A stretch of DNA of 64,000 nt from Candidatus Woesearchaeota archaeon (GTDB lineage Archaea > Nanobdellota > Nanobdellia > Woesearchaeales > ARS49), in the NCBI GenBank assembly GCA_038891615.1, contig JAWADY010000002.1, forward strand, positions 64,994 through 128,993. The letters run 5' to 3'. Every line of letters starts with the position of its first letter. Position 1 is the stretch's first letter. The position numbers were made by a program, and so were the translations under genes. Under the pieces are notes generated by a model that saw only the letters and a list, made by a program, of their open reading frames with translations, was not told the DNA's origin and ran no database searches. Of this stretch, positions 3-56,959 are shown in pieces.

Positions 3-881
3 ATGTCAAAAAACGTCTTTGCGTTTAAGAAAGCACCGCCAGAATATCCCTACTCCCCATTCCCAAAACCGCCAATATTTCCTTCTGCACCAACATACGG
101 CTATTACGGTGATATAAGTATAGTGACTGAAAAAAGACTTTCTGCGGAGCTGAGCTCATACATAGAATCAAATATCCAAAGCTGCACTGATTGGTCAAGC
201 TTTGCACAGAAAGGGATTGATGTAAAAGTTGGTAAACCATCAGCGGATGTCCTTTTTGGAGACTCTGACACAACAGTCTCGCTTAGGTGGCGAATAGAGG
301 CAAAAAGCGGCCAGGCAGAAGCGGTCATAAACAAATTTGCAGCAAGCATTCCGGTTAGAATGAAGGTTGTACGTAACTATGCTCTCGAGATAGCCTCAAA
401 TGACACCCTTTACTATGACTATGAGCCTAGCAGTGCTCCAGCAGTCCAGGTTTTCAAAAGGGTTGATGGCAAAAGCGACATAATTCAAATCACAGATACG
501 CTTTCAAAAGTTGACACAAAACCGTTTATCTTCAGGTTTGCAAGAAAGAATAGGCCTCCTGTGCTTTTCGATTCTGATATTAAATTGCGATTTAATGAAA
601 TTTTTGCTTGCCCAGGCGATGTTATAAGTTTTGATGGCAAGACATTCAAAATAACTAAACAAAATGGTGACATTCGCTTTTCTTTTGCACCAAATGCAAC
701 AGATTTTGATGAAGATTCTAGTTTATCATTTAATGTTTCTGATAGAGGTGGTGAGCCCTTTCCTTTAAGCACAACTCAGCAAATGGCAAATATTGGTAAA
801 AGAGAACTAAGAATAGAAGTCAGTGATGGTCTTGAAAAAGATTGGTATGATGCAAGCCTGACTTTAAAAACAAAATGTTAA
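3..881 (+). CDS. 5'-truncated secreted/extracellular protein of unknown function; stop overlaps the start of the giant downstream gene (ATGTTAA)
   Basis: Open frame enters from the window edge, 292 aa, no TM in the visible part. The 7-nt overlap with the 875 ATG suggests translational coupling. No recognisable family. Confidence 0.45.
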   Translation: MSKNVFAFKKAPPEYPYSPFPKPPIFPSAPTYGYYGDISIVTEKRLSAELSSYIESNIQSCTDWSSFAQKGIDVKVGKPSADVLFGDSDTTVSLRWRIEAKSGQAEAVINKFAASIPVRMKVVRNYALEIASNDTLYYDYEPSSAPAVQVFKRVDGKSDIIQITDTLSKVDTKPFIFRFARKNRPPVLFDSDIKLRFNEIFACPGDVISFDGKTFKITKQNGDIRFSFAPNATDFDEDSSLSFNVSDRGGEPFPLSTTQQMANIGKRELRIEVSDGLEKDWYDASLTLKTKC

Positions 882-3800
882 GAAAAGAAGTTATTGGAAT
901 CTTTGTAGTGCTGTTCTTCGTAGTAATTGGAATCGCGGTCATTGCACAGGAAGAAAAAACAGGTTGTTGTTGTGATGAAAATGGAACTGCAATGGATTAC
1001 AGTCCTTTCCATACCCAAAATGAGTGCACTGATCCATTCACCATTCTTGTTCCACTTTCTTCAGAAAACATAAGCAAGTATACTCCTGACAACATCTCAA
1101 AAATATGTATAGACGCTTGTGGTGGTGCAGCCCCTAAGCCTTTACCATTGCCACTTGCTCCAAAAATAACTTTTTTTAAAGCAGAACCGTTGATGGGCCA
1201 AAAGAAATTTTTGCTCACCTGGGAGATAAATCAAACACCAAATGTCATCTATATAGACAGGTGCAAAGGAAATGACTGCACTAATTTTGGCAACATTGCA
1301 ACCTTTGCTGGAACCTCAAGGTCTTATGTCGATGATGATGCAAGCCTTGAGTGGCTAACAAATTACACCTACAGGTTGAGGATTGTCAATACAATTACAA
1401 GCCCACCACAAGAATCAAGCATGACAGCATCCTCAAGCCTTGGCGACATTGAGTGCTGGAATCGATTCGACAAAACTCCTTTCTGCATTTCAGAGTACTA
1501 CTATTGGAATGAGCCTATTCAGAGCTATCTCAAGAATTTTGGCTATTTTGGTTTCAGTTTCACTGATAATTTTGCAAGACAGGTGCGGACTGTTTTTGGA
1601 GTAACAAATCTTGACCACATAGGAAAGCTCGACTCAAGATGTCATGTGGTTGGCATAAACAGACTCAGTCAGTCTTCCTCAAGGTGCAAGAGCAACGAGA
1701 CTTGCCTTGTTGTGGATTCAAACACAATCTGCATAACCCCTTCACCTTGCGATACAAGCTTTAATGCAACCTCTGCTTCTTGTGAAAACACCCCTTCAGG
1801 TACTCCAAGCTATTGTTTCTCTGATAAGAGCCAAAGTGTTATTGAGCGCTGCTACAGTTGTGATAAAAGGATGAGCTGCTATGACTATCGTTCAAAAGAG
1901 GCCTGTGAGAGGGATGCATGCGGAATTGGAGATTGTATATGGAAGCCAACTTATGGAGCAATTGGAGTTGGAGTTTGCATCAATCCTTCTCAAAACAACT
2001 GTCTGCTTTGTGACAAGAAAACAGGAGACCTTCTTTCAGGCTTGGATTCAAAAAAATGGCCTAGTCTTTTGGCTTATAATGAGCTTTTTGACGCCTGCTC
2101 ACAGCTAAAGGCAGAAGCTCTTGGCAAATGCCTTGCCGTGACAGACCCTTCAACAGGAAAAACTTCTCCAAAGACTTGCGAACAAGCAACCTGCAGCGAT
2201 TATAAAACTCAGCAAGAATGTAATGCCGACACTTGTGGGTTGGGAATATGCAAATGGTTTGACTCACCCACCTTCCGCGGCTGTGCAAAGGATGCTGACA
2301 CCCCTCCTCAAGCCCCTGCAACAGATAGTGATGGTGATGGTATTCCTGATTGGTGGGAAATCAAGTATGGTTTGAATCCTAACAATCGTGATGATGCTGG
2401 TAGTGATTCTGATGGTGATGGCTTGAGCAATTTGGATGAATGGTTGCGTGGGACCCTTCCAAACAATCCTGATAGTGATGGTGATGGTGTCTCTGATCTT
2501 AATGATAATTGCCCTGGTACTCCTTCAAACACTTTTCAAGTTGATAGCAATGGGTGCCCTCTTCCTGTTAGTGATACCACTGATTCTGATGATGATGGTA
2601 TTCCTGATTGGTGGGAAAGAAAGTATGGTTTGAATCCTAACAATCCTGCTGATGCTGGTAGTGATTCTGATGGTGATGGCTTGAGCAATTTGGATGAATG
2701 GTTGCGTGGGACTCTTCCTAACAATCCTGATAGTGATGGTGATGGTGTTTCTGATCTTAATGATCAACATCCTGGTACTCCTTCAAACACTCAAGTTGAT
2801 AGCAATGGGCGCCCACCTCAAGGCAATGGCAAGCCGGATTGCATTGATCCAAACACAGGTGAAATAGATCCTGCGTGCGAAGCAGACAAGTGGTCACCTG
2901 AAACAGTCATTATCCCTGTGGGTGACAGAGGGGCTGTAAAATACCTATACATACAAATTACTGACCAGTTCAAAAGCACAGGTGAAAAATTAACTATTGC
3001 GCACTCTGGAACTGGAACAAAGGCAGAGTACTTTCCTAAAGGCTACAGCACTTTTCTTTGCGTTGGTAGCCTTTGCTCACCAAATGTTCGTGTGAACGCA
3101 ACTCCCTTGACTGTTGTAAATGGCTTCTTGACAATAAATGGTAAGCCTCTTGGACTGCAGCTTAAGGATGGTTCCAACATCTTAAGATTCTACTCACAAG
3201 ACCCTGCAAATAATAATGAACAAGTTAAGCAGCTAGAGGTGAATGCCTGCACAGGCTGTCAGGGACCTGCTCTCATTACTCCAATTGATATCGAAGGCGC
3301 AAGAATTGTAAATGGTGAGTATTATACAAAGCTAACACAGCCGCAAATAAAGCTATCCTTTGATGCAAAGGCAGAACTTGTTTTAAAGAGGCTTGTTTTT
3401 GGCAATTCTTTTACTGAGCTTAGCTCAAGCCCACAATCCGGCTTCAGCCAAAACTACACATTACTACCTCCTGAGCTAGCAGAAGCAAAGTATGTTCTGC
3501 AAATAAATGCTCGTGGAGAAAATGGAATCTCGAGCTCTAATACGCCTTACAGCTTCAATTTGACGATAGACAAAACCCCGCCACTCCTTTCATTCAATGT
3601 TGAACAAAACAGCATCTTAGAAAACCCAGACCAGTCTTTTGTGCTTAGCTTTAATGAGCCTGTCTTTGTTACTTCCATTTTTTTCGATGAAGAGCATGTT
3701 GCTCAAAATGGTCGCAAGTATGTTTTTACAAGAAATCTAACCTCTGAACTCAAGCAAGTGAATAGCAGCAAATATAACCTAACTGTTAATGGAATTCCTG

Positions 3801-6355
3801 ATGGGCATGTTGCGCTAAGAGTTACAGCAGAGGATTATGCCGGAAATACAATGGCTTCTGTGCTAAACTTTATTATTGACTCAACAGGCCCGGTCATTTC
3901 TCTGGCACAACCACTATTCGGAATTTCTGACAAGACACCATTTGACATTGTCGTTGAAACAGACCAGCCAGCTATCTGCAGATATTCAACAATTCAAAAT
4001 GTTGACACTGCGAGCATAAGCTATGATGCAATGGCAAAGTTCTACATACCTGAAAAACAAACCGCACAGCACATCATACAAGGCTTTGACGAGCTCACAG
4101 GAAAGCCAGAAAACACGCCCTGGAGGTTCTATGTTGTTTGCAAGGATGGCAAGCAACGCCAGTCTAACGAAACCTTCTGGCTGTCCGTTGATTCTGCTCC
4201 TCCAAAAATAACAGCTGCTTATGCAGAACCAAATCCAATCGTTGAGTACACAGACAGTGAGCTGCTAACAACACTGAAAGTCTCAACAGAACGCAGCTCC
4301 TTCTGCAGTTACAGCACAACAACCACGAGCTTTAGCCCTGAAAATGGTTTTGAAGGGACAGGCATAACTCCAAGGCAAGCGCACAATGCTGTGGTTAAAA
4401 TAACCACTTCTCCGACAACTTATAACATCGCTTGCATTTCACCAACCGATTATGGCAAAGCTGCGCCAAGAACAGCAACAGCAACAATAAAAATCACTGT
4501 TGACGTTGCAGCACCACTAACCATTTCCTGCAGCTATTGCCCTTCATTCTGGAATTCTACCACAAAAAACATATACCTGACCACAAACAAGCGCGCGCAA
4601 TGCTTCTGGACACTTGACAAGACAACCACTTCTTTTGGTACAGTTGGATATGAGCACAGCACCACTCTGAAAGTGCCATCTCTTGGCGAGAAAAAAGTGC
4701 TCTTTAGCTGCAATGCAGGCGCCCAAAGTGCAACCCTTGAGTATTCATTTCTTGTAGACAACAGCCCTCCTGTAATGCTCTATGTTAGTGATAACTCAAG
4801 CCTTAAAGAAGATACAGAGCATAGCTATTTCACAGATAGGTTAAGGGCAGCATGGCTCGGGCAGGATAATGAAAGTGGAATAACACGGTATTATTACTCT
4901 TTAATCGAAAAGGCAAACAACGCTGTTGTGATAAATTGTTCACCTGGCTCTCAACAAAACAATTGCCGATTCTCAACAGTACTTGATGGAAATTTCTTTG
5001 ACATTACGCAGGACCATAATGGAAAGTCGCTCAATTTAACAGACGGCTTTAGTTATTTCTTGAAGGTTTGGCCCCTAAATAGGGTTGGTCTTCTTGGAAA
5101 TCCAATGGACTCGGATGGAGTTGTAATAAACAAAAGCAAAAAGCCAGCTCACTGCAGCGATGGAATAACAAATGAAGGCGAATCAGGGCAGGACTGTGGT
5201 GGAGAGTGCGAGCCTTGTCCTGATGGTCAGCCTTGTAGGTCTGATTCGGACTGTCTCTCAAAAACCTGTATAGAAGGTTCGTGCAAGGCTCCGAGCTGTA
5301 CAGATTTAAGAAAGAATGGTAATGAAAGCTCAATCGATTGTGGTGGGAGCTGTCCAACAAAGTGCGAAGCTGGTAAAAGTTGTAACACTGACAGCGATTG
5401 CAAAACAGGACTAAGCTGTATATCTGGTGCATGCGCAGAACCAACAGCTTGCGAGAATGGTATACTTGATGGGCTTGAAACAGACATTGACTGCGGAAGG
5501 GTTTGTCCAACAAAATGCGCAGCTGGAAAGGGCTGTCTTGATAATAAAGATTGCGCTGATGGGCTATATTGTGTTAGTGGTGTTTGTTCTTCAACAACTC
5601 CAACCGCTGATTCTGATGGTGATGGTGTCACTAATGATCTTGACCAGTGCCCAAACACTCCGAAAGGTGAAAAAGTAGATAAAAACGGTTGTTCAGCAAG
5701 CCAGCGTGACACCGATGGAGATGGCATGAATGATGCTTGGGAGATACGCTATGGCTTTGATCCTGAGAATCCTGCTGATGCTTATACAGATGTCGATGCT
5801 GATGGCCTTAGTAATCTTGAGGAATTCAAGTTAGGAACTGATCCAAGAAACCCAGATACTGATGGTGATGGTTGGAGTGATGGGGCTGAGTTCAAGGCAG
5901 GAACAGACCCTCTAGACCCTGCCTCAAAGCCATCCGCCCCTATTGTGAGAGCTTTGCCATGGCTGTTGCTTGTTGCAATCCTTGCCATAGCCGGTTACGC
6001 AGCTTACAAGTACAGGAAGCAAATTGCTGCAATTTTTGTAAGGAAAAAGGTAATTCCTTTGCCAAAGCCGCCTGTGGTGTGGAGACCGCCACCAAGGCCT
6101 GTCCAAAGAGTTGTGCGTGTTCCAACAAGAGCAGAGTTAATCATTGAACAGCTTAGAAAGATTGCCCGAGCTACAAAGGCTGAAGAAGAGGAATACATTC
6201 CTGTAGAAGAGCTTGCCAGAAGGGCAGCTGCGCTAGAGCCAACAGAAGAAGTACTTAAGCATCTAAAGGCAGCAGTAAGAAAAAGCCCTGAGTTTGCAAG
6301 GGCTGCAGCTGCCCAGCCAAAGCTCAGAGCGATGCTCAAGAAAAAATCAAAATGA
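875..6355 (+). CDS. Giant (1826 aa) membrane-anchored surface protein/adhesin with thrombospondin type-3-like Ca-binding repeats (DxDxDG), Cys-rich modules, a C-terminal TM helix and a roughly 130-aa charged cytoplasmic tail
   Basis: N-terminal hydrophobic signal/anchor (IGIFVVLFFVVIGIAVIA). Repeated DSDGDG(I/L/V)xD...WE..YGLNPNN motifs. Four roughly 43-aa 6-Cys modules (CxDGxxNGxExxxDCGGxCxxCxxGxxCxxDxDC...C..GxC). TM ALPWLLLVAILAIAGYAAY near the C-terminus, followed by a Pro-rich then helical K/E-rich tail. Confidence 0.8.
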   Translation: MLRKEVIGIFVVLFFVVIGIAVIAQEEKTGCCCDENGTAMDYSPFHTQNECTDPFTILVPLSSENISKYTPDNISKICIDACGGAAPKPLPLPLAPKITFFKAEPLMGQKKFLLTWEINQTPNVIYIDRCKGNDCTNFGNIATFAGTSRSYVDDDASLEWLTNYTYRLRIVNTITSPPQESSMTASSSLGDIECWNRFDKTPFCISEYYYWNEPIQSYLKNFGYFGFSFTDNFARQVRTVFGVTNLDHIGKLDSRCHVVGINRLSQSSSRCKSNETCLVVDSNTICITPSPCDTSFNATSASCENTPSGTPSYCFSDKSQSVIERCYSCDKRMSCYDYRSKEACERDACGIGDCIWKPTYGAIGVGVCINPSQNNCLLCDKKTGDLLSGLDSKKWPSLLAYNELFDACSQLKAEALGKCLAVTDPSTGKTSPKTCEQATCSDYKTQQECNADTCGLGICKWFDSPTFRGCAKDADTPPQAPATDSDGDGIPDWWEIKYGLNPNNRDDAGSDSDGDGLSNLDEWLRGTLPNNPDSDGDGVSDLNDNCPGTPSNTFQVDSNGCPLPVSDTTDSDDDGIPDWWERKYGLNPNNPADAGSDSDGDGLSNLDEWLRGTLPNNPDSDGDGVSDLNDQHPGTPSNTQVDSNGRPPQGNGKPDCIDPNTGEIDPACEADKWSPETVIIPVGDRGAVKYLYIQITDQFKSTGEKLTIAHSGTGTKAEYFPKGYSTFLCVGSLCSPNVRVNATPLTVVNGFLTINGKPLGLQLKDGSNILRFYSQDPANNNEQVKQLEVNACTGCQGPALITPIDIEGARIVNGEYYTKLTQPQIKLSFDAKAELVLKRLVFGNSFTELSSSPQSGFSQNYTLLPPELAEAKYVLQINARGENGISSSNTPYSFNLTIDKTPPLLSFNVEQNSILENPDQSFVLSFNEPVFVTSIFFDEEHVAQNGRKYVFTRNLTSELKQVNSSKYNLTVNGIPDGHVALRVTAEDYAGNTMASVLNFIIDSTGPVISLAQPLFGISDKTPFDIVVETDQPAICRYSTIQNVDTASISYDAMAKFYIPEKQTAQHIIQGFDELTGKPENTPWRFYVVCKDGKQRQSNETFWLSVDSAPPKITAAYAEPNPIVEYTDSELLTTLKVSTERSSFCSYSTTTTSFSPENGFEGTGITPRQAHNAVVKITTSPTTYNIACISPTDYGKAAPRTATATIKITVDVAAPLTISCSYCPSFWNSTTKNIYLTTNKRAQCFWTLDKTTTSFGTVGYEHSTTLKVPSLGEKKVLFSCNAGAQSATLEYSFLVDNSPPVMLYVSDNSSLKEDTEHSYFTDRLRAAWLGQDNESGITRYYYSLIEKANNAVVINCSPGSQQNNCRFSTVLDGNFFDITQDHNGKSLNLTDGFSYFLKVWPLNRVGLLGNPMDSDGVVINKSKKPAHCSDGITNEGESGQDCGGECEPCPDGQPCRSDSDCLSKTCIEGSCKAPSCTDLRKNGNESSIDCGGSCPTKCEAGKSCNTDSDCKTGLSCISGACAEPTACENGILDGLETDIDCGRVCPTKCAAGKGCLDNKDCADGLYCVSGVCSSTTPTADSDGDGVTNDLDQCPNTPKGEKVDKNGCSASQRDTDGDGMNDAWEIRYGFDPENPADAYTDVDADGLSNLEEFKLGTDPRNPDTDGDGWSDGAEFKAGTDPLDPASKPSAPIVRALPWLLLVAILAIAGYAAYKYRKQIAAIFVRKKVIPLPKPPVVWRPPPRPVQRVVRVPTRAELIIEQLRKIARATKAEEEEYIPVEELARRAAALEPTEEVLKHLKAAVRKSPEFARAAAAQPKLRAMLKKKSK
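2324..2830 (+). repeat. Near-perfect tandem duplication (2 x 258 bp) inside the giant surface-protein gene, encoding two almost identical 86-aa TSP3-like units
   Basis: DNA units starting at about 2324 and about 2582 are nearly identical (gattctgatggtgatggcttgagcaatttggatgaatggttgcgtggga... in both). The protein units differ at only a few residues. Confidence 0.85.
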
Positions 6356-6852
6356 GACTTGGCCAAATAGTTGGGCAAATATTTCTTTTCTTGTTGGCAA
6401 CAATTGTTTTTGTTTTTATAGTTGTTTATGGCTATCGCGCAATAGGCAACCTTGTTGCAAAAGGTGAGCAAGCAGACCTAGTGCGATTCAACAGCGAGCT
6501 CAGTTCCGCAGTTAGTGCTATATCCCTTGACTATGGCAGCGTGCGTTGCCTAGAGCTCAGCCTTCCAAAAAGATATAGAACCTTTTGTTTTGTCGGGCAG
6601 GAGCCTGACATAGGCGCACTTTCCTTGGTCAGCCCATTAATTGCAAGTGCTGTCCAGTCAGGGATTAAGCAAAATGTTTTTTTAATCCCCCCTTCACCGC
6701 TTCAACTATATCTAGAAAAGGCAACGACAAAAGCAGAGGGAGGATTTTTTTGCATAAATACAAGCGGACCAACAAATCGCTTGCTACTCAGGCTTGAAGG
6801 TGGCGCAGGAGGAATTGCAGAGCTACAAAAATGGCAAGGAGCAAGCTGTTAA
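6352..6852 (+). CDS. Pilin-like protein with class III (type IV pilin-type) signal peptide
   Basis: N-terminus MRLG|QIVGQIFLFLLATIVFVFIVVYG: short basic segment, G at -1, Q at +1, then a roughly 20-aa hydrophobic helix. Lies directly downstream of the giant gene. Confidence 0.55.
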   Translation: MRLGQIVGQIFLFLLATIVFVFIVVYGYRAIGNLVAKGEQADLVRFNSELSSAVSAISLDYGSVRCLELSLPKRYRTFCFVGQEPDIGALSLVSPLIASAVQSGIKQNVFLIPPSPLQLYLEKATTKAEGGFFCINTSGPTNRLLLRLEGGAGGIAELQKWQGASC

Positions 6853-7820
6853 TTCCAAAGCACAGAAAAGGCCAGATAGAAGCGCCAGTAAGTTGGATAT
6901 TCATACTTATTGCAGGAGCTGTAATCCTTCTTTTTTTCTTTTCAACAACCATTAAGTTGCGTGACATTGCAAAACAAAAGCTTTCAATAACCCTTTTGTC
7001 AAACTTAGATGCACTCATCTCTAGCTCATCCGTTGCAAAAGGTACAAGCCAGCTGCTGCCGATTTATGACCAGCAACTTGTTTTTGAATGTACACAGGCT
7101 TGTCTTTGCGAGCTTTCAGTCCTTGGCGCAAAAAAGCCATTTAAAGACAGGCTGATTTTTGCTCAGCAAAAGGTTTTTGGAAGAAATGCGCTATTTTGGG
7201 CTCTTGACTGGAAGGAGCCATTCAGGATTGCTAATTTTCTTTACATAACAGACAGCTCAAGCAAATATTGGTTGGTTGGGGATTCGAGCAGCGAACCACT
7301 TAAGACAATAAAGTTCCTCCTTCCTAAGAATCTTAGTGCGGAGTTCGTAGACTCCACCCAAAACATCAAGCCAGGAAATTTCAAGAAAAGCAGGATTGTT
7401 CTTTTTGACAAAGCACTGGATGAAAGCCTTGCAGATAGTTTTCCCAAAGCATCTGAGCTAACATTACTTGTTGTCAACACCCAGAACAAAGAGCTTAAGT
7501 GGTACAAGAGAAAAGGTAGCAAGCTGGAAGTGCTGTCAAATGAAGGGGCGGATAACTACAAAAGCATTCCCCATCTTTTGGGAGCAATTTTTAGTGACGA
7601 GCCGCAGCTTTACGCCTGCCAACAAGCAGCTTCTGAGGACAGGAAAGCGGCCATAAAAGAAATCTATGTTGCACGTGTGCAAAAATTGATGCAAATTGTG
7701 CCAGAAGAACGTGGTTGCAGCGCGCTTTACGAAGAGACGTTCAAAAACATTAACGCTCCTGAGGCGCTTGAGGAGATTAATGAGGAATTGCTAAAAAAGA
7801 GTTGTCCAACAATATACTAA
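6831..7820 (+). CDS. Pilin-like protein with class III signal peptide (329 aa)
   Basis: N-terminus ...KHRKG|QIEAPVSWIFILIAGAVILLFFF. Overlaps the upstream gene by 22 nt. Confidence 0.55.
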   Translation: MARSKLLIPKHRKGQIEAPVSWIFILIAGAVILLFFFSTTIKLRDIAKQKLSITLLSNLDALISSSSVAKGTSQLLPIYDQQLVFECTQACLCELSVLGAKKPFKDRLIFAQQKVFGRNALFWALDWKEPFRIANFLYITDSSSKYWLVGDSSSEPLKTIKFLLPKNLSAEFVDSTQNIKPGNFKKSRIVLFDKALDESLADSFPKASELTLLVVNTQNKELKWYKRKGSKLEVLSNEGADNYKSIPHLLGAIFSDEPQLYACQQAASEDRKAAIKEIYVARVQKLMQIVPEERGCSALYEETFKNINAPEALEEINEELLKKSCPTIY

Positions 7821-7821
7821 A

Positions 7822-8352
7822 ATGGCAAACAATGCATCTCCAAGCAAAAAGGCTCAGATAAAGATGTTTGAGAATATCGCTGTCCTCGTGATATTCTTTT
7901 TTCTTCTGGCTTTTGGTACAAGCTTTTACTTTACACTTCAAAAAAGTTCCCTTCAGCGTGAAATGGAACGCATTGCGCAGCTTGGAAACATTCAGCAGGC
8001 GCTTAGGCTTACATTCTTACCAGAGCTTGACTGCTCATTTGCTGCTGTACAAACTGAAAATTGTTTTGACAGGCTTAAGTTTGATGCTCTTGCAGATCAG
8101 CTTAAACCAGGTAGCCAGCGATGGCTTGAGTACTCTGCAATCCTTGGTTTTACTAGTATAAAACTAAAGACTGTTTATTCCAGCCTCTCTCCCCCGCCTG
8201 AAGAGAAACTTCTGTACGAAAGAAAGCTGAACGCAACTGCAATTCGCACAGAGATTCCTGTCTTGATTTGTGAAAACGGTTGCGACCCGCTAAATCAAAG
8301 CTATTCCTTCGGCATCCTTGAGGTGACAAGCTATGTTAGAAGGGCAACCTGA
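7822..8352 (+). CDS. Pilin-like protein with class III signal peptide (176 aa)
   Basis: N-terminus ...SKKA|QIKMFENIAVLVIFFFLLAFG. Start lies 2 nt after the upstream stop. Confidence 0.55.
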   Translation: MANNASPSKKAQIKMFENIAVLVIFFFLLAFGTSFYFTLQKSSLQREMERIAQLGNIQQALRLTFLPELDCSFAAVQTENCFDRLKFDALADQLKPGSQRWLEYSAILGFTSIKLKTVYSSLSPPPEEKLLYERKLNATAIRTEIPVLICENGCDPLNQSYSFGILEVTSYVRRAT

Positions 8353-8854
8353 TGGCATTGCTGTGTTGAAGGGATTAAAGAGAGCAAAAGGCGGGCAAAT
8401 GGAAATAATTGGTCTAACAATCATCATTCTTCTTGTTATAATTGGGGTGCTTTTTGGAATACAGTTTGTGCTCAAGGCAAAGCCGCCCACAATTGGACGA
8501 GAGTTTAGGGAATCGCAGTACGCAGCCAACTTCCTAAGCACTCTTACAGGTACAACAAGCGCATGTAATGGTTTGAGCATCACACAACTTTTACAGAACT
8601 GCGTGACAAGGACAGGGATTGACTGTCCATCAGGAAAGGGTGCTTGTGAGGAGGTTGAGGCTCTTATAGAAACAATCCTTGATAAAACAATTGGCAAGTC
8701 GGGACAAAACAGAGCATACCAACTTATGGTAAAAGGCAGCAACATTGACATTACTAAGTCTAATCGGGGAGGATGTCCGGGCGAAAAAGAGGTTGCAGAA
8801 CACACACTTCCAACAAGAGCTGGAGTAGTTTCTATACGCCTCGAGTTGTGCTAA
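8333..8854 (+). CDS. Pilin-like protein with class III signal peptide (173 aa)
   Basis: GAGGTGA Shine-Dalgarno 8 nt upstream of the ATG. N-terminus ...KRAKGG|QMEIIGLTIIILLVIIGVLFG. C-terminal part has 4 Cys. Confidence 0.5.
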   Translation: MLEGQPDGIAVLKGLKRAKGGQMEIIGLTIIILLVIIGVLFGIQFVLKAKPPTIGREFRESQYAANFLSTLTGTTSACNGLSITQLLQNCVTRTGIDCPSGKGACEEVEALIETILDKTIGKSGQNRAYQLMVKGSNIDITKSNRGGCPGEKEVAEHTLPTRAGVVSIRLELC

Positions 8855-8856
8855 AA

Positions 8857-10827
8857 CTATTTGCTAAAAGGATTTCTCATTTGCTTTGCTACCCAGACTG
8901 GGCTAAAATCTTCATAATCATTATCAGTAAGCTGCTCGAGCTTATCCTTTTCAATGTTGTAAACAAAGATTTCGCAATCTCTGTCTTTTTGTTTCTGTCC
9001 AAAACGAAACCAAGGGCAAGCAGAAAAGGCAATGCCTTTTGAGTCTTGCGACCAAGCAATGTTGTCCTCATTTACAAAAAAATTGTTTGGAATGCTAACT
9101 TTTTTGATGCTTAGTTTTGGCCAATCCGCTATATTGACAATGGTTACAATACTGCTCCCCTTATACCTTATTGCAAAATGTTTCAAATCTGGAGAGTTAT
9201 ACATTGCTAATGCCTGGTCTGGAAGTTTTGTCACAAATTTTGGCTTGTCCACACCGTTCTTACAAGATTCTTTTCTTTTTTTCTGGCAAGAGGCTAAGTC
9301 ATAAAGGGTGGCTTTCTCGAGTGCTAGAAAGTAAAGAAGGTTTTGGCTTTCACCTTTTGGATGATAAGGACTGGCTGCGAGGCTAAAGAACAAGCCAGGC
9401 TTTGCAAAAGTCAGTGCAGTAACATAATATCCCTTTTTTTCAAAAATCTTAAGTTTGATTGGGCTTTCTGATCCAAAGATTTTATAAGCATATATCTTGC
9501 CCTTCTTCTCATTGTTGGCATAAACGAGCCAGTTAAAATCAAACCACTCAAAGGCTTCCCACTCTGATTTGTCGTCGTACCCTGTTGATAAATTCTTTAT
9601 TTTGTTCTCTTCCGTCTTTAAAAGGGGAGCGAGCCTGATAGTCTTCCAGGACTTTTCTGCAACGCATCCACATTGTGGTGAGATCTTTATTTTGTGATAA
9701 AAGGATAACCCAGAACTTTCAGCAACATCCCCAAGCTTTGGAAAGAAGTAATGTAGTTTGTTGTCTATCACCACACCAACAGTTTCTCCATCGCTGCTTT
9801 TTATTAGGTTTTTGGCTTCCTTTTTTTTAAACACAACCACATTATGCGTTTCCTTTAATGGTGACCGTGGATAAACAAAGTTTATTCCGAAGTTGTCATC
9901 TAATCGTGAAATAAAGTATATTTTCTCATCAGTGACCAATGAAGAAAGCCAGATGAAGAATGAGGCTGTTGTGACAAACGCCGACCCTAAAAACCATTTC
10001 CTGTTTTTGCGCCACCAAAGATACCTGCACGCCTTTTTAGCGCTCCATCTTTTCTTTAGATTTGTTTGAAGAAAGCCAGAAATAAGTTTGCGAAGTGGAG
10101 CTTTTTTAAGTCGTTCATATTCTCCAGAAATTATTTTTTCTCGCAACCTTTCACGCTCAGCATCCTCAAAAGGAAAGCTACCAGTTATAAGCTTGTACAG
10201 TGCAACGCCTGCCGCCCAACTATCACTTTGTTGCGATGGCATAAAGCCTTTTAGTAGTTCTGGCGCACGATAGAGCAAGCTACCATAGCAAGGGCCGTAG
10301 TGTAGCTCCTTGCTGTTCGATAGTCCGAAGTCAACAATTTTTATCTTTCCTTCAGAAAGAATGAGGTTTTCAAGGCTCAGGTCACCATGTGTAACACCTC
10401 TTGAGTGCAAAAAGTCAAGTCCTTTACAAATCTGTTCCGCGCATTCAATGAGTTGCTTTTCATCGAGTTTGCCTGCAACCTCGCTCAGCTTTCTGCCTTC
10501 CACATACTCTTCAACAATAAATGGCAGGCCAGTCTTTTCGTCTATGTTAACAAAGTAGATTTTAGCAATATGTTCATGGCCTTTGCCGCGCTCCTCACGC
10601 AACTTTGTAAGAATTTTTGCCTCGCGCTCAAATGTGCTTTCAATGCTTACATTCCTATAAGCTGGAAATGAGCGCGAATGTTTCAGAATTTTTAGTGCAA
10701 CTGTTATGCCTTGTTGAGTATCATAAGCCTTCCAAACTTCTTTAAAAGCGCCGCCACCAATCTTTTCAATGAGTCTAAACTTACCGTTATTAAAAAAAGC
10801 ATTATCCTTAAATTCTTCTTCAGCCAT
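8857..10827 (-). CDS. Eukaryotic-like Ser/Thr protein kinase fused to a TM helix and a C-terminal PD40/TolB-like beta-propeller domain
   Basis: Kinase subdomains G-x-G-x-x-F-x-V (GGGAFKEVW), VALK, HGDLSLENLIL, DFG, APE. Internal hydrophobic helix (FVTTASFFIWLSSLV). C-terminal WSQDSKGIAFSA-type PD40 repeats. Confidence 0.8.
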   Translation of the reverse strand: MAEEEFKDNAFFNNGKFRLIEKIGGGAFKEVWKAYDTQQGITVALKILKHSRSFPAYRNVSIESTFEREAKILTKLREERGKGHEHIAKIYFVNIDEKTGLPFIVEEYVEGRKLSEVAGKLDEKQLIECAEQICKGLDFLHSRGVTHGDLSLENLILSEGKIKIVDFGLSNSKELHYGPCYGSLLYRAPELLKGFMPSQQSDSWAAGVALYKLITGSFPFEDAERERLREKIISGEYERLKKAPLRKLISGFLQTNLKKRWSAKKACRYLWWRKNRKWFLGSAFVTTASFFIWLSSLVTDEKIYFISRLDDNFGINFVYPRSPLKETHNVVVFKKKEAKNLIKSSDGETVGVVIDNKLHYFFPKLGDVAESSGLSFYHKIKISPQCGCVAEKSWKTIRLAPLLKTEENKIKNLSTGYDDKSEWEAFEWFDFNWLVYANNEKKGKIYAYKIFGSESPIKLKIFEKKGYYVTALTFAKPGLFFSLAASPYHPKGESQNLLYFLALEKATLYDLASCQKKRKESCKNGVDKPKFVTKLPDQALAMYNSPDLKHFAIRYKGSSIVTIVNIADWPKLSIKKVSIPNNFFVNEDNIAWSQDSKGIAFSACPWFRFGQKQKDRDCEIFVYNIEKDKLEQLTDNDYEDFSPVWVAKQMRNPFSK

Positions 10828-10878
10828 CTCTTTTTTTTAAATTTATGCAAAAATTCTTTAAAAATTTTCCGAACAGCG

Positions 10879-11763
10879 TTATCTTGTTTTCTGGATAACA
10901 GATGGTAAAGCAAGCGCAGGAAGCTGTATGCTCAAGTCGACTATAGAAGCAAGGTGAATGTTTTTCCAGCCGTAACGACGTATTTCCTCAAAAATTCTCG
11001 AAGCTTCGGTTGCCGTTTCCTGTTTTGCATCGAAGACAAATCTGTAGCAAGCGTCAAAAAGCTTGGCAGCCTTTTCATATTGTTTTACAATCTCCTGTTC
11101 AGGAACCGCGCGCTGCTTGACTATCTCTGCAGCAAGATACTTGCACTCGTCACCAATTCTTTCCACACTCCAGACAATGACTGCCTTACGCATAGCCTCT
11201 AGGTGTTCTGATATGACATTTTTTGCAAGATACCTCATGCAGTAATGTGCAAGCCTATTCACATCAATATCGCGCTGCTCTAGATGTTCAAGAGCAGTGT
11301 AATCCCAATTTCGAATAGCTTCTACCGAATCCTCAAGCATTCCTTTTACAAGAAGAAACAACCTCCGATAAAGTGCTGGAAATTCATCTTTTATCTGACC
11401 AGCAACATCACGCAAAATGCAATAGTTGCTCCTTTGTTCAACAGTCTCAAAACCAATTAGCTCAATGAGGGCTTTTTTGACGCGCTGAGGAGTTTCTGCT
11501 TCGAAGTTTGTGATTTTTATTTCATCATAGCCATCCTCATAAAGCCTGACAATAAGCCTTGGCAAGAGGACTCCTGCCTCAGGCGCACTTATTTCTTTGC
11601 TTTTGAAGACCTTTTGAGTGCTTGTTGGAGAAAGCGAAATAAAACCTGGTTGTTCTGACATTTCAATCTCATCTCCTTTCTTTATTCCATACTTTCTTGC
11701 CCATTTCGCAGGAAGACTTACCACAAGCGTTTGCTTGGAAAGCTGAATGACCTTTCTTCTCAT
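10879..11763 (-). CDS. Archaeal-type PhoU-family regulator with N-terminal AbrB/SpoVT-like domain
   Basis: N-terminus VIQLSKQTLVVSLPAKWARKYGIKKGDEIE (AbrB swapped-hairpin signature). PhoU hallmark ERIGDECKYLAAEI plus a second helical repeat. Confidence 0.7.
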   Translation of the reverse strand: MRRKVIQLSKQTLVVSLPAKWARKYGIKKGDEIEMSEQPGFISLSPTSTQKVFKSKEISAPEAGVLLPRLIVRLYEDGYDEIKITNFEAETPQRVKKALIELIGFETVEQRSNYCILRDVAGQIKDEFPALYRRLFLLVKGMLEDSVEAIRNWDYTALEHLEQRDIDVNRLAHYCMRYLAKNVISEHLEAMRKAVIVWSVERIGDECKYLAAEIVKQRAVPEQEIVKQYEKAAKLFDACYRFVFDAKQETATEASRIFEEIRRYGWKNIHLASIVDLSIQLPALALPSVIQKTR

Positions 11764-11910
11764 AATCCTTTGAAATGGTGCTTTGTATATAAAGTTTTCT
11801 ATAGGTATATAATTAAATTTTTATTATATATTTTAAGATAACTTATATATTTTAAGCATAAAATATATACTTTTGTTAATGCACTCACCTAAAAAAAGGA
11901 GGTGAGAAAG
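11764..11910. promoter_or_regulatory. AT-rich divergent promoter region between the phoU-like and lrp-like genes, with several TATA-like elements and a 13-bp direct repeat tatatattttaag (11825-11837, 11844-11856)
   Basis: Extremely AT-rich 147-bp spacer. TATA-like tatataaag / aaaatatatac. GGAGGTGA Shine-Dalgarno at 11898-11905 ahead of ATG 11911. Confidence 0.45.
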
Positions 11911-12393
11911 ATGTCTGACTTTCAAAAAAAGGATTTGGTAATAATAGCCCATCTCAGGCAGAATGCGCGGATGAAGCTAACAGCAATGTCAAGAAAAACA
12001 GCACTCCCTGTCTCAACAATTTATGACAGGTTACAACTTCATGAAGGAAAGACAATCCTAAAGCATTCGTCTCTCATTGACTTTTCAAGACTTGGCTTTA
12101 GTGCAAGAGTGAATGTTCTCTTCAAACTTGGAAAAACTGATAAACAGGAATTTGTAGCATTCCTATCAAAACATCAGAATGTCAACAGCCTTTACAGGAT
12201 TAATAATGGTTTTGATTTCCTTGCAGAGTGCATTTTTAAGAACATACGAGAACTAGAAGACTTTTTCGAACAACTTGATGCAAGGTTTGACATAAAGCAT
12301 AAAGAGGTTTACCATGTTATTGACGAGCTAAAGCGTGAAGCCTTTTTATCAGACCCTCAATTGATTGAGCTTGCAGGAATTGAAGCAGCCTAA
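11911..12393 (+). CDS. Lrp/AsnC-family transcriptional regulator
   Basis: N-terminal HTH (KKDLVIIAHLRQNARMKLTAMSRKTALPVSTIYDRLQ) followed by a RAM/ACT-like C-terminal domain. About 160 aa, typical size. Shine-Dalgarno GGAGGTGA 5 nt upstream. Confidence 0.75.
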   Translation: MSDFQKKDLVIIAHLRQNARMKLTAMSRKTALPVSTIYDRLQLHEGKTILKHSSLIDFSRLGFSARVNVLFKLGKTDKQEFVAFLSKHQNVNSLYRINNGFDFLAECIFKNIRELEDFFEQLDARFDIKHKEVYHVIDELKREAFLSDPQLIELAGIEAA

Positions 12394-12543: not shown

Positions 12544-12798
12544 ATGTCAAAAGGTCAAGGCATTTCAATTAATGTTATCATAATAGCTGCGATTGCACTG
12601 CTTGTTCTTGTTGTTCTTTCTGTTATGTTCATAGGCAGGATAGGACTCTTTGGAGTTAAGAGTGTTTCTTGCACAGAACAGGGAGGAACATGTTCTGTTG
12701 ATGTCTGCCCAGCAGGGACAAGGGAGTACACACCTTGGAGGTGCCCTGATACTCCTGAGGGGGCAAAGCAGCGCTGCTGCGTGGCAATAGGGGTGTAA
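12544..12798 (+). CDS. Small Cys-rich pilin-like protein (84 aa), class III signal peptide
   Basis: MSKGQG|ISINVIIIAAIALLVLVVLSVMFIG. C-terminal 45 aa contain 7 Cys. Paralogous to the next two genes. Confidence 0.65.
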   Translation: MSKGQGISINVIIIAAIALLVLVVLSVMFIGRIGLFGVKSVSCTEQGGTCSVDVCPAGTREYTPWRCPDTPEGAKQRCCVAIGV

Positions 12799-12809
12799 GT
12801 GAATTTTCA

Positions 12810-13079
12810 ATGGCAAAAGCGCAAGGGCTGCCAATAAACACAATCATTATCGTTGCGCTAGCACTTGTTGTTCTTTTAGTCATTGCAGCCATTTTTACTG
12901 GTCGTATACAGCTTTTTGGAAGAGCGCTAAGCAACTGCCCAAAAGGAGAGGGGAAGTGGTGCACAGACAACCCTTCGGATTGCGCAGCTGGCAACGCAGC
13001 AGCAAGTCCGCTAAAAAATTGCAACGAAGATGCTGACCCTGAACCAGAAGGGAGCTATTGTTGCATACCATTGGCATGA
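12810..13079 (+). CDS. Small Cys-rich pilin-like protein (89 aa), paralog of 12544
   Basis: MAKAQG|LPINTIIIVALALVVLLVIAAIFTG. The N-terminal 30 aa are almost identical to the upstream gene. C-terminal Cys-rich segment. Confidence 0.65.
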   Translation: MAKAQGLPINTIIIVALALVVLLVIAAIFTGRIQLFGRALSNCPKGEGKWCTDNPSDCAAGNAAASPLKNCNEDADPEPEGSYCCIPLA

Positions 13080-13366
13080 GAATGGGCAAAATGAGCGGAA
13101 AAAAGGGTGCTGAAGCCATTTGGTACATAATCGCGCTTGTCATTGGGCTAATAGTTCTTGTTGTGCTGGTAGCATTATTTACAGGAAAGGTAAAGCTGTT
13201 TGGCAAGGCAGGAGAAGAAATCGAAAAAGGTGTTCGTGGAAATCTTTGTTTTGAGCAGGGTTTTTGTGAAGCGGGCACTGCTTGTCCTCCTGGTTCAACA
13301 GCAATCCCGCGCCCTGCTGCTGGCTGGACAGATTGCACAGGGATTTGTTGCAAGCAAGTTGGATAA
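13076..13366 (+). CDS. Small Cys-rich pilin-like protein (about 96 aa), paralog
   Basis: ATG overlaps the upstream TGA (cATGA). MRMGKMSGKKG|AEAIWYIIALVIGLIVLVVLVALFTG. C-terminal Cys-rich. Confidence 0.6.
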   Translation: MRMGKMSGKKGAEAIWYIIALVIGLIVLVVLVALFTGKVKLFGKAGEEIEKGVRGNLCFEQGFCEAGTACPPGSTAIPRPAAGWTDCTGICCKQVG

Positions 13367-13508
13367 AGTTTTTATACGCAAGAGCCACTTGATTTTTTAT
13401 GCACAAAAGAGGCGTTGAAAAAAGCACTTTGTTATACCTCATCCTAATCCTTATCTTTCTTGCGCTTGCAGCCTATATTCTTGTGAGAATTGCTGGGAGG
13501 ATTTTTGG

Positions 13509-14225
13509 ATGAGCCTGCTCATTGTCAGAAGGAAGGGAATAACAGAAACAGGATTAGTGGCAATAATCCTTGTCCTTGCCTCTGGCATTGTTCTTGGAGC
13601 TCTTGTCTATCAGTTTACTGTTAAGGGGAAGCAGGTTGGCTCTATCGAGCTTTGCAGACAGAATGTGCTAACTGCTAGCAAAGTTGTAGCGCTTGGCAAA
13701 GCAGATATTTGGCCAATCACCAACTGCTTTACAGAAGACCTTGGCAAACTTCCAGAAAAAGAAGAAGAAGCCATTACTCTGATTGCCGAGGGTATTAGGA
13801 AGTGCTGGTACATGTGGGGCGAAGGAAAGCTAACTCCATGGAGCTCTACATGGCTATCAAGAAACATCATGTGTCATGTTTGTACGATGTTTGAGCCAAG
13901 CGCAGAAGTGAGTATTGAAAAGCTTCATGGTTGGATGAGGACTCACAACATTCCTGGCAAAGAATTAACCTACTATGACTTTTTGAAAGAAGGCTACATC
14001 CCTTTCATCTATCCAGCACTTGAAGAAGAAGCCAAAGCCAAAAAAGTTGACCTCACAAAAGGAATGAAATGGGCTGTCTTTTATGCCTATGGAACGCGCG
14101 CGGATTGGCTAAGATTTCCCCTCATTGGTGGACTTGTGCTTGAAGAACCAAAACAAGGCGTTGCCTTCCTGCCGACAAATGAACTCGGAGGCATATGTAC
14201 ATATACTACGATAAAACTCAAATGA
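13509..14225 (+). CDS. Pilin-like protein (238 aa) with class III signal peptide and a Cys-containing globular domain
   Basis: MSLLIVRRKG|ITETGLVAIILVLASGIVLGALVY. Shares CW..WGEGKL...CHVC motifs with the next gene, so the two are paralogs. Confidence 0.6.
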   Translation: MSLLIVRRKGITETGLVAIILVLASGIVLGALVYQFTVKGKQVGSIELCRQNVLTASKVVALGKADIWPITNCFTEDLGKLPEKEEEAITLIAEGIRKCWYMWGEGKLTPWSSTWLSRNIMCHVCTMFEPSAEVSIEKLHGWMRTHNIPGKELTYYDFLKEGYIPFIYPALEEEAKAKKVDLTKGMKWAVFYAYGTRADWLRFPLIGGLVLEEPKQGVAFLPTNELGGICTYTTIKLK

Positions 14226-15145
14226 AAAGGGCGCAAGTAACAACACAGACACTCTTGGTAGTGCTCGTGCTTTTACTCGTAGCAGCTGTCATCTTTATTT
14301 CTTTTCAGACAAGACTCTTTGGCTTAGCAGAAGCCAAAAGTGCAAAGGATGTTTGCAAAACTTCTGTCTATGCCAATGCGCTGCTTGGAAGAAGTGTTGG
14401 AATCTTTTCTTCGGATATAAAATGTCCAACTCAGTATCTTCAGATAGACAATAGTGATGTTGCACATGCAAAGTTTGAGATTGCAAAAGCTCTGTCAGAT
14501 TGTTGGGAACAATTTGGAGAAGGCAGGCTTGAGCTTTTTTCTGGAGAAGGTGTTTTTTGTTCCGTATGTCATTTGATAACTTTTAAGCACAAAGAAAAAG
14601 CAATAAGCGGGCTTTTAGACTATCTTGCAACTAACAAAAAACCCCTTACTGACAAAAGCTATCTTGATTATCTAACAAGCTATCACACTTCAGGAAGCGA
14701 GGTTCTTAAGGCATATGCAGCTGAAAAGCTCCCGCCTGACATTCTTGACCCATCGCGAGGCAACACCTATGCAACAATCTTCTACTATGTCAAGGGTAAA
14801 GACCATGTGAAGGATGTTATTGAAAGAGCCCAAGCAGCAGCACCTGGCATTGGGCTTGAAGCACTTGGTATCGGATTGATAAAGGCAGGCAGTGCAACAG
14901 CTGGCTTGATTTCAGCAACCGGCATTGGTGCGCCTCTAGGTGTAGTTGTTGCAAAGGTCTCAACAATTGTCGGCGGAGTTTTGATTGTTGGCGGAGCAGG
15001 CTATGCCCTCCTCGCTGGTTGGTTCGGCGGAGTCCCTGTAGAATTCCTCTCACAAGTACGCCTCGAGCCTTACAACGAGCAAACGCTTAAAAACCTCGGA
15101 TGCCAAATCCTGCCTGCAGCTGAAAAAGCAGAGGTTGGAAGGTGA
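14222..15145 (+). CDS. Pilin-like protein (about 307 aa), paralog of 13509, with a C-terminal Gly/Ala-rich hydrophobic segment
   Basis: Start ATG overlaps the upstream stop (aATGA). MKRA|QVTTQTLLVVLVLLLVAAVIFISF. Motifs CWEQFGEGRL / CSVCHL match the upstream paralog. Confidence 0.6.
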   Translation: MKRAQVTTQTLLVVLVLLLVAAVIFISFQTRLFGLAEAKSAKDVCKTSVYANALLGRSVGIFSSDIKCPTQYLQIDNSDVAHAKFEIAKALSDCWEQFGEGRLELFSGEGVFCSVCHLITFKHKEKAISGLLDYLATNKKPLTDKSYLDYLTSYHTSGSEVLKAYAAEKLPPDILDPSRGNTYATIFYYVKGKDHVKDVIERAQAAAPGIGLEALGIGLIKAGSATAGLISATGIGAPLGVVVAKVSTIVGGVLIVGGAGYALLAGWFGGVPVEFLSQVRLEPYNEQTLKNLGCQILPAAEKAEVGR

Positions 15146-15279
15146 TGAAAAAAGGCATATCCCGCGAGGCATTTGTTTACATACTCTTGGCACTTATTGC
15201 AATCCTCATTGGAGTAATCTTGATAATTTTTTGGGGAGGCGGGGCAGAAAAGGTCCTTAAGTCTCTTGGTTTGGGATAG
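15145..15279 (+). CDS. Mini pilin-like protein (44 aa), essentially only a class III signal peptide plus TM helix
   Basis: Absent from the ORF track (<60 aa). TGATG overlap with the upstream stop. MKKG|ISREAFVYILLALIAILIGVILIIFWGGG. Confidence 0.4.
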   Translation: MKKGISREAFVYILLALIAILIGVILIIFWGGGAEKVLKSLGLG

Positions 15280-15284
15280 CTCAA

Positions 15285-15641
15285 ATGGACAAAAAAGCTG
15301 TTGCAATAGAAACAATAGTCATCCTTCTCCTTGCACTTGTTGCTCTCCTTTTCTTTACAGTCCTTGGAGGAAAGCAGCTTCAATTGGGCAAGAAAATAAG
15401 CTTTTTCATGCCGGGCTGCCCAAAGGGTGTTTTAATAACCACAGAATGTCCATGTGATGGCCAAAAGATAAGTTCAGGTTATTGCTGTGATTTTGGACCA
15501 AGCCAAAAGCCTTGCTTTTGCGTAGAGCGAAATGTTAATAAGTGCGAGGATTACAAAAAGCAAGAGGATTGTGTAAGCAATCCTTGCCAAGTTCAAACTG
15601 CTTGCACCTTTGAACAAGGTGTTTGCAAAAGGGCTGGTTAA
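15285..15641 (+). CDS. Pilin-like protein (118 aa) with an extremely Cys-rich C-terminal domain
   Basis: MDKKA|VAIETIVILLLALVALLFFTVLGG. 16 Cys in the last 80 aa (CPKG...CPCDG...YCCDFG...CFCVERN...). Confidence 0.6.
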   Translation: MDKKAVAIETIVILLLALVALLFFTVLGGKQLQLGKKISFFMPGCPKGVLITTECPCDGQKISSGYCCDFGPSQKPCFCVERNVNKCEDYKKQEDCVSNPCQVQTACTFEQGVCKRAG

Positions 15642-15645
15642 ATAA

Positions 15646-16071
15646 ATGGCAAAAAAAGGGGTAAGTGGAATACAGGTCGTCATAGCACTTTTGATTGGCA
15701 TCATAGTGCTCTATGTTGTTGTGGCTTTTATGCAAGCACAGTTCAAGAAGGCTGGAAAGAGTATCGAGGAAATAACTCCTTCCACAATCAGCTTTGCGCT
15801 GCAAGGCTGCAGGCTCCAAGCCGCACGAGGTTTTTCTGATGCAGATAAGGATGGATATCCCGACTTTTGTGATGTCTGCGAAGGCGGTGATGACGGAAAG
15901 CACAGCGATGCTGACTGGGTTCCAGATGATTGTGATGCGCATGAAAAAACAAAAGGGCTTCCTGCAAAGGAATGTGGTTGTGAAAAGCCAGAAATGGATT
16001 CTGAAGGCAGGCTGATAAAGAGCTGTGGGAGGCTTCTTTCAATCGAGCCATTTAAGTGCGCGAAAAAATGA
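15646..16071 (+). CDS. Pilin-like protein (141 aa) with Asp/Cys-rich (Ca-binding-like) C-terminal domain
   Basis: MAKKG|VSGIQVVIALLIGIIVLYVVVAF. C-terminus: DADKDGYPDFCDVCEGGDDGKHSDADWVPDDCD. Confidence 0.6.
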   Translation: MAKKGVSGIQVVIALLIGIIVLYVVVAFMQAQFKKAGKSIEEITPSTISFALQGCRLQAARGFSDADKDGYPDFCDVCEGGDDGKHSDADWVPDDCDAHEKTKGLPAKECGCEKPEMDSEGRLIKSCGRLLSIEPFKCAKK

Positions 16072-56875: not shown

Positions 56876-56959
56876 GCCTCCGTAGCTCAGTAGTGGAGCG
56901 ACTGCCTTGTATCTGTGCAAGAAAGCAGTAGGTCAGGGGTGCGAATCCCCTCGGAGGCT
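56876..56959 (+). tRNA. tRNA-Thr (anticodon UGU) with a 12-nt intron after position 37
   Basis: Acceptor GCCTCCG/CGGAGGC, D-arm GCTC-AGTAGTG-GAGC, anticodon stem ACTGC/GCAGT with loop CTTGTA[TCTGTGCAAGAA]A, T-arm AGGGG-TGCGAAT-CCCCT. 84 nt against 72 without the intron. Confidence 0.55.

Follow-up and report, generated by a model that had tools for sequence, protein, structure and literature searches.

PD40 belongs to the domains that are most often found tethered to prokaryotic serine/threonine (Ser/Thr) kinases, and the sensor of the Mycobacterium tuberculosis kinase PknD is a six-bladed propeller (PMC2877116). The eukaryotic-type kinases ArnC and ArnD of Sulfolobus acidocaldarius act in the regulator network controlling the type-IV-pilus-like archaellum (PMC5300886). 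On the regulator side, Pyrococcus furiosus has PhoU-family regulators as one of its larger families of transcription factors (PMC6316755), and TK2245 of Thermococcus kodakarensis was recovered among chromosome-associated proteins (PMC7325993). Here, we analyzed a locus in which a receptor-type Ser/Thr kinase gene lies directly downstream of a gene for an AbrB-PhoU transcription regulator. The window, i.e., the whole stretch of DNA analyzed, comprises 64,000 nt of a metagenome-assembled genome of a Candidatus Woesearchaeota archaeon, a tiny archaeon of a symbiotic type (GCA_038891615.1, contig JAWADY010000002.1, positions 64,994–128,993 of the forward strand; GTDB lineage Archaea; Nanobdellota; Nanobdellia; Woesearchaeales; ARS49). 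By sequence comparison, the genomes of Woesearchaeota, Pacearchaeota, and Nanoarchaeota share a conserved kinase slot immediately 3′ of the AbrB-PhoU gene, and the kinase and the regulator probably form a signaling pair. This pairing in DPANN archaea appears to be undescribed in the literature searched. The genes of the pair are as follows:

8857..10827, minus strand, receptor-type Ser/Thr kinase gene (open reading frame (ORF), 656 residues)
10828..10878, minus strand, spacer between the regulator and kinase genes (51 nt, read directly)
10879..11763, minus strand, AbrB-PhoU transcription regulator gene (ORF, 294 residues; Pfam)

A sequence-only reading of this DNA had described two minus-strand genes separated by 51 nt and a divergent lrp-like gene, and the ORFs and Pfam matches agree with it in coordinates, strands, and domain assignments. 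The 656-residue kinase is identical to the database entry P0001, 'serine/threonine-protein kinase [Candidatus Woesearchaeota archaeon]'. The protein is present on 11 contigs, and its neighborhood is identical in all of them (11/11).

The gene content downstream of AbrB-PhoU homologues was surveyed at 63 species-level loci from GTDB genomes, found with a subset of eight sequences, and at loci obtained by exact look-up; the counts are out of 64 or 65. The titles of these records nearly all named Woesearchaeota, Pacearchaeota, Nanoarchaeota, or Nanoarchaeia, and 11 read 'uncultured Methanosarcinales'. A protein-kinase-like gene was found directly downstream (+1) of the AbrB-PhoU gene at 24 of 64 loci, compared with 5 of 835 genes elsewhere (odds about 100, Fisher p = 2.6e-25). 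For the 20 closest relatives of the window regulator, a kinase occupied +1 in 12–13 cases. The kinases in this slot were of three kinds: 16 proteins with N-terminal transmembrane (TM) or TPR segments and a C-terminal APH-like kinase-fold domain, three APH-type proteins, and five Hanks-type proteins, one of which (L064) scored slightly below the Pfam cut-off and another of which (L066) carries a TM helix C-terminal to its kinase domain. As the other neighbors were not conserved and three kinase types shared one slot, the arrangement points to selection for the pairing rather than to inherited gene order. The earlier reading had hinted at a functional pairing, and the enrichment at +1, together with the layout of the two nearest relatives described below, gives the hint a comparative footing.

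The TPR-APH family (420–1085 residues; L001:6927-8846, L009:8896-11826, L070:8833-10803, and 10 further loci; alignment A4) carries invariant or near-invariant K, E, D, N, and D residues, with the two Asp residues 18 positions apart. Most members had no Pfam match; the Pfam APH model was reached by 5 of 13 members, with two above the cut-off. In the loci examined, the TPR-APH genes were always convergent to the AbrB-PhoU gene, and the 3′ ends often overlapped by 10–55 nt. The profile of the family weakly matched the N-lobe of the window kinase (E = 2e-4). Close kinship between the two finds no support past the common kinase fold (E = 2e-4 over the N-lobe; hhalign 42%).

Some other genes near AbrB-PhoU were recorded separately. 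At +1, the genes that do not encode protein kinases sometimes encode phosphotransfer proteins, such as guanylate-kinase-like proteins and a PEP-utilising enzyme (L033:1999-3291, L045:8939-10360, and L030:8138-9997), and the guanylate-kinase-like protein of L045 carries a response-regulator receiver domain. A Metallophos (calcineurin-like phosphoesterase) gene was observed a few genes upstream of AbrB-PhoU in L072 (2460-3170) and L075 (1874-2575); the +1 position at these two loci is taken by a DUF4202 gene (L072:5168-5980), followed by a protein of 703–904 residues with no family match.

The two regulators most similar to that of the window (36–37% identity) lie on the short metagenome contigs L074 and L076, and both repeat its layout. 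On L074, a divergent Lrp gene and the AbrB-PhoU gene are followed, 13 nt past the regulator stop codon, by a co-directional ORF that starts MHSDQFQSGDTFLDYTLEEKLGSGAFAQTWKAHD; the contig ends within this ORF, the first 34 residues of which match the window kinase (E = 1e-6), the alignment spanning residues 1–36 of the latter and with them its unusual G-loop. On L076, a divergent Lrp fragment precedes the regulator, and a co-directional ORF begins 24 nt downstream. Thus, the linkage proposed from the window alone is kept in its nearest relatives. A metagenome scan with the kinase G-loop pattern returned 66 unrelated kinases, with no orthologue and no adjoining AbrB-PhoU gene among them.

The kinase itself was divided into the following parts:

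10015..10776, minus strand, cytoplasmic Hanks-type kinase domain, residues 18–271 (Pfam Pkinase)
9931..9996, minus strand, single TM helix, residues 278–299 (hydropathy and flanking charge)
8860..9930, minus strand, extracellular beta-rich domain, residues 300–656, 357 residues (AlphaFold2 (AF2), Foldseek, and sequence)
8875..9063, minus strand, one canonical PD40 repeat and the first strand of the next, residues 589–651 (phmmer and PD40 profile)

The Pkinase model (PF00069) matched residues 18–271 with 147.5 bits against a cut-off of 31.7 (E = 6.3e-43), covering profile positions 2–262 of 263. The kinase motifs GGGAFK, VALK46, HGDLSLEN147-154, DFG166, and APE188 were read from the sequence. 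The catalytic set is complete (K46, the catalytic Asp D149, N154, the metal-binding Asp D166, and APE188), while HGDLSLEN lacks both the Arg of HRD and the Lys of the catalytic loop, and Lys takes the place of the third G-loop glycine. The protein is a non-RD Hanks-type Ser/Thr kinase and is probably active. In searches with the full-length protein, the matches were mainly plant CIPKs and bacterial kinases with 25–35% identity, and several of the proteins matched over the kinase domain carry PD40. The protein P0170 was rejected as the best match because its high score came only from its two kinase domains.

Only residues 278–299 reach a Kyte-Doolittle mean near 1.6 over 19 residues. They are flanked by seven Lys/Arg within 15 residues on the N-terminal side and by two Lys/Arg and four Asp/Glu on the C-terminal side. 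As there is one TM helix and the ATP-dependent domain lies on its N-terminal side, the 357 C-terminal residues are placed outside the cell. Hydropathy and the positive-inside charge bias thus define the protein as a single-pass N-in/C-out receptor with a cytoplasmic kinase domain, in agreement with the outside placement of the sensor domain that had been proposed; the topology with a propeller in the cytoplasm was not seen.

The ectodomain had been described as a TolB/PD40 beta-propeller, and this was recovered for one repeat and fragments but not over the whole domain. An exhaustive phmmer search of 1.84 billion representative proteins gave 260 matches at E <= 1e-3 (best E = 6e-14), and all the listed matches ran through residues ~590–654 only. 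The five top matches that were scanned were all multi-repeat PD40 proteins (5/5). With a profile built from the phmmer matches, residues 589–647 (NIAWSQDSKGIAFSA...EIFVYNIEKDKLEQLTDNDYEDFSPVWVA) corresponded to one full PD40 repeat and the first strand of the next (53 bits), the C-terminal FSPVWVA aligning to this first strand. Residues 301–315, immediately after the TM helix (EKIYFISRLDDNFGI), aligned weakly to the second half of a PD40 repeat (E about 0.1). The Pfam PD40 model reached 15.4 bits against a cut-off of 20.9 when only the last 99 residues were submitted, and the whole ectodomain gave no match. A word-indexed search with the ectodomain returned only the protein itself, and neither this search nor the exhaustive one found an orthologue covering the whole ectodomain. 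Consequently, no alignment of true homologues was available, and the blade count stays approximate.

For the structural model, AF2 was given an alignment of 43 PD40 propellers that are not true homologues. The model had a pLDDT of 62 and a pTM of 0.64; it was confident (pLDDT 85–94) only at the N-terminal strands and the C-terminal blade, as expected if strands from the two ends closed a ring. In a Foldseek search of the PDB with this alignment-biased model, TolB was the top match (E = 2e-6, TM-score about 0.5). AF2 run on the full-length kinase as a single sequence was uninformative (pLDDT 31). With moderate confidence, the ectodomain is modeled as a closed PD40/TolB-like propeller of about 6–7 blades, and with similarly moderate confidence, the last blade would be completed by the strands directly after the TM helix. 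The blade count by structure prediction, which had been suggested as a check, is therefore consistent with 6–7 blades as far as the confident ends of the model and its biased alignment allow.

Two points speak against a propeller. Residues 296–585 scored 15.8 against a PD40-propeller profile, compared with 12.2 ± 1.6 for shuffled sequences (maximum 16.1), which leaves ~290 residues with no signal, and the AF2 model was biased by its alignment. These points would suit another beta-rich fold with a PD40-like segment merely at its end, as would the pLDDT below 50 in 118 of 361 residues and the TolB TM-scores of only about 0.5. We consider such a fold a real though clearly less probable alternative, as one PD40 blade alone does not make a stable unit, ring closure fits the half-repeat-like segments at both ends, the length suits 6–7 blades, and the protein P0071, which has the same layout, shows six clear repeats.

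The regulator contains an AbrB/SpoVT domain at residues 11–46 (Pfam PF04014, MazE_antitoxin; 30.3 bits against 24.7) and a PhoU match at residues 133–212 (PF01895; 32.7 bits against 23.5) within a helical domain of about residues 117–266. A profile of 18 family members matched the PhoU structures 4q25, 2i0m, and 1t72. Across the 18 homologues, the AbrB-domain motif VSLP..W is invariant or nearly so, and the E201-x3-D205 motif is kept. Phosphate signaling, at which the sequence-only reading had hinted, was rejected. The PhoU match holds at the domain level only, with scores far under the equivalog cut-offs (24.3 bits against 130.25 for TIGR02135 and 17.7 against 342 for PRK11115), and no phosphate-transport family was found among the neighbors with precomputed Pfam matches, although pst genes were not specifically searched for. 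Some genomes carry two AbrB-PhoU paralogues, either in tandem (L044:6595-7578 and 8001-8945) or at separate loci (L048 and L055 in JAFGDD; L050 and L056 in JABSQY). The family is thus not single-copy, and the kinase-linked copies may be a subgroup.

Upstream of the regulator lie the following features:

11764..11901, no strand assigned, divergent promoter region common to the regulator and Lrp genes (sequence reading)
11902..12393, plus strand, Lrp/AsnC-family regulator gene, divergent (Pfam)

The product of the divergent gene matched AsnC_trans_reg (PF01037) with 31.7 bits against a cut-off of 25, and its AsnC-type HTH was sub-threshold in the Pfam HTH_AsnC model (22.4 against 27 bits). A divergent Lrp gene was found at −1 in 12 of 65 loci, eight of which also have a +1 kinase, as well as in L074 and L076. 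In the promoter region, TAAAATATATA occurs in three copies at 11824–11870 (two direct and one inverted), and a TTTATATA box is located about 30 nt upstream of the AbrB-PhoU ATG. At 10 related loci, the corresponding regions also contain the TTTATATA box and an upstream TATAATTATA-type palindrome; the palindrome was observed upstream of the box in Lrp/AbrB-PhoU intergenic regions including those of L001, L014, L024, L041, L052, and L055. The TAAAATATATA repeats and the TATAATTATA-type palindrome are candidate operators for Lrp or AbrB-PhoU.

The pair is surrounded by genes for putative surface proteins. At least 11 ORFs at 6352–8854 and 12544–16071 (plus strand) resemble class III signal peptides at their start: a short basic stretch and K/R-G/A are followed by a hydrophobic segment of ~20 residues, and we infer the 'pilin' label from these N-termini. 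Genes for a pilus ATPase or platform were not found near these ORFs. The pilin block of the sequence-only reading is therefore supported in its N-termini and not by Pfam. In addition, a protein of 1826 residues (window 875–6355, plus strand) resembles a giant adhesin. It has a hydrophobic segment at its N-terminus, ends in a TM anchor, and contains many Cys-rich modules together with calcium-binding repeats of the bacterial TSP3 type; its gene heads an operon that ends 2 nt from the kinase stop codon. Elsewhere in the window, an 84-nt tRNA at 56876–56959 (plus strand) was found by Rfam (57.7 bits) and was unreported by ARAGORN; it may be an intron-containing archaeal tRNA.

We favor, at somewhat better than even chances, a reading in which the kinase and AbrB-PhoU form a one-step transmembrane phospho-signaling pair. 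The outer domain would bind a ligand, most likely on the archaeon's own envelope or on the surface of a host cell, and the binding would alter the kinase activity. The kinase would then phosphorylate the AbrB-PhoU protein, or the PhoU domain would gate the kinase. Finally, the AbrB domain and the divergently encoded Lrp would change the transcription of the operons for pilin-like and giant adhesin-like proteins to either side. In this scheme, we infer which way the coupling runs, which genes are targeted, and what ligand is bound; the regulator may control the flanking pilin-like genes.

Several observations weigh against the scheme. The phosphorylation site, substrate, and ligand cannot be derived from sequence. 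What links the pair to the pilin-like genes is adjacency alone, the Lrp gene being at −1 in only the 12 loci mentioned, and Pfam gave no family match for the small flanking 'pilin' proteins. The APH-type kinases were sought at +1 only, and the count without them is 21 of 64. The +1 gene was convergent in 60 of 65 loci, and co-transcription is not the general rule. The spacer between the regulator and the kinase contains two T5 runs, which resemble archaeal terminators, and AT-rich TATA-like boxes, TTTTTAAA at −37 to −30 and ATAAATTT closer to the ATG; with both kinds of element, read-through and a separate start are both possible. Co-transcription is thus a possibility for which the sequence offers the spacing as its sole guide: 51 nt in the window, compared with 13 nt for L074 and 24 nt for L076.

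These elements of the spacer would also be expected if the two genes were mere neighbors and the kinase a lineage-specific insertion with its own promoter and unrelated substrates. The orphan ectodomain, the orientation unlike that of the +1 genes of most relatives, and the 40 of 64 loci with no recognized +1 kinase fit such an insertion. We regard it as decidedly unlikely, since chance neighborhood leaves unexplained the roughly 100-fold enrichment at +1 (p = 2.6e-25), the independent recruitment of three kinase types, and the co-directional layout of L074 and L076 with gaps of 13 and 24 nt. The coupling could also run in reverse, the PhoU-like domain modulating the kinase and the regulator being sequestered or released rather than phosphorylated. 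In Escherichia coli, PhoU interacts with the histidine kinase PhoR and with PstB. The PhoU-like domain with its E-x3-D motif is conserved in the family, and the partner kinases come from three families, many with TPR modules, which fits docking as well as an enzyme–substrate relation. The similarity to PhoU is, however, of the domain level only (24.3 against 130 bits), and none of the partners here shares the PAS domain of the histidine kinase PhoR; we consider the reverse coupling unlikely.

A toxin–antitoxin-like or anti-phage module, in which an AbrB/MazE-type antitoxin is joined to a kinase effector as in HipBA or kinase-based defense genes, was rejected as highly improbable. It is suggested by the name of the Pfam model that scored the AbrB domain ('MazE_antitoxin') and by matches of the kinase domain to mad6 and PD-T4-6 of PADLOC and to NCBIfam MADS6. 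These matches cover only the generic kinase domain (103.7 bits against a family cut-off of 460), and AbrB-PhoU, Lrp, and the TPR-APH kinases had no PADLOC match. Gene sizes and orientations are also unfit: the regulator has about 300 residues and a PhoU domain and is not a small antitoxin, most pairs are convergent and not operonic, and the window kinase, with its large outer domain, is a receptor in the membrane.

Beyond the one-step phospho-signaling pair in the window, AbrB-PhoU and the adjacent kinase might represent an undescribed lineage-wide DPANN module that replaces two-component systems in reduced genomes of this kind. In such a module, the partner (a cytoplasmic TPR-APH kinase or a membrane receptor) would be swapped according to the signal, and the output would be host-attachment pili or adhesins. 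We hold this broader proposal only tentatively and find it rather doubtful. DPANN archaea are mostly uncultured, and all those cultivated so far are host-dependent ectosymbionts (PMC11291902). If the proposal is true, the regulator–kinase pair, which in some genomes is flanked by pilin-like and giant adhesin-like genes, would be a concrete candidate circuit for host sensing and for the switching of attachment structures in DPANN archaea. The kinase would also be the first functional partner for the widespread and uncharacterized archaeal AbrB-PhoU regulators.

Among the known systems, TK2245, a 'SpoVT/AbrB family regulator containing a PhoU domain', has the same two-domain architecture as the window regulator; the literature searched gives neither a function nor a ligand or kinase partner for archaeal AbrB-PhoU regulators such as this one. 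Bacterial PhoU of the Pst/PhoR complex shares the helical PhoU domain, whereas the window regulator adds an AbrB DNA-binding domain and scores far below the PhoU equivalog cut-offs.

On the kinase side, exactly the layout of the window kinase is seen in P0071 (639 residues), which has, in this order, a kinase domain at residues 10–263, a TM helix at about 331–354, and six PD40 repeats to the C-terminus. A protein from Terriglobia (P0290) is likewise named 'protein kinase / Tol biopolymer transport system component', and PknD of M. tuberculosis is also a receptor Ser/Thr kinase with an outer C-terminal propeller sensor, the blades of which are of the NHL type and not PD40. The PD40-type bacterial kinases differ from the window kinase in that the latter has one recognizable repeat and is found in a DPANN archaeon. 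Its kinase domain is about 30% identical to those of the best matches and has HGDLSLEN in place of HRDxKxxN. A kinase joined to a PD40 ectodomain had been called an unusual arrangement in archaea; across prokaryotes, to which this comparison applies rather than to archaea specifically, it is a common design (PMC2877116; P0071). The window kinase is a highly diverged member of a known receptor-kinase type and, taken alone, is of an ordinary type.

The Arn network differs from the window in its regulators (FHA, vWA, and Lrs14 proteins as opposed to AbrB-PhoU and Lrp) and in its phylum, and no fixed kinase–regulator gene pair is known to have been described for it, whereas the window pair is known from sequence alone. 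The two are alike in that eukaryotic-type Ser/Thr kinases of the Arn network act on the regulators of a type-IV-pilus-like surface structure (PMC5300886), and the Arn network thus offers a precedent for kinases acting on the regulators of a pilus-like structure.

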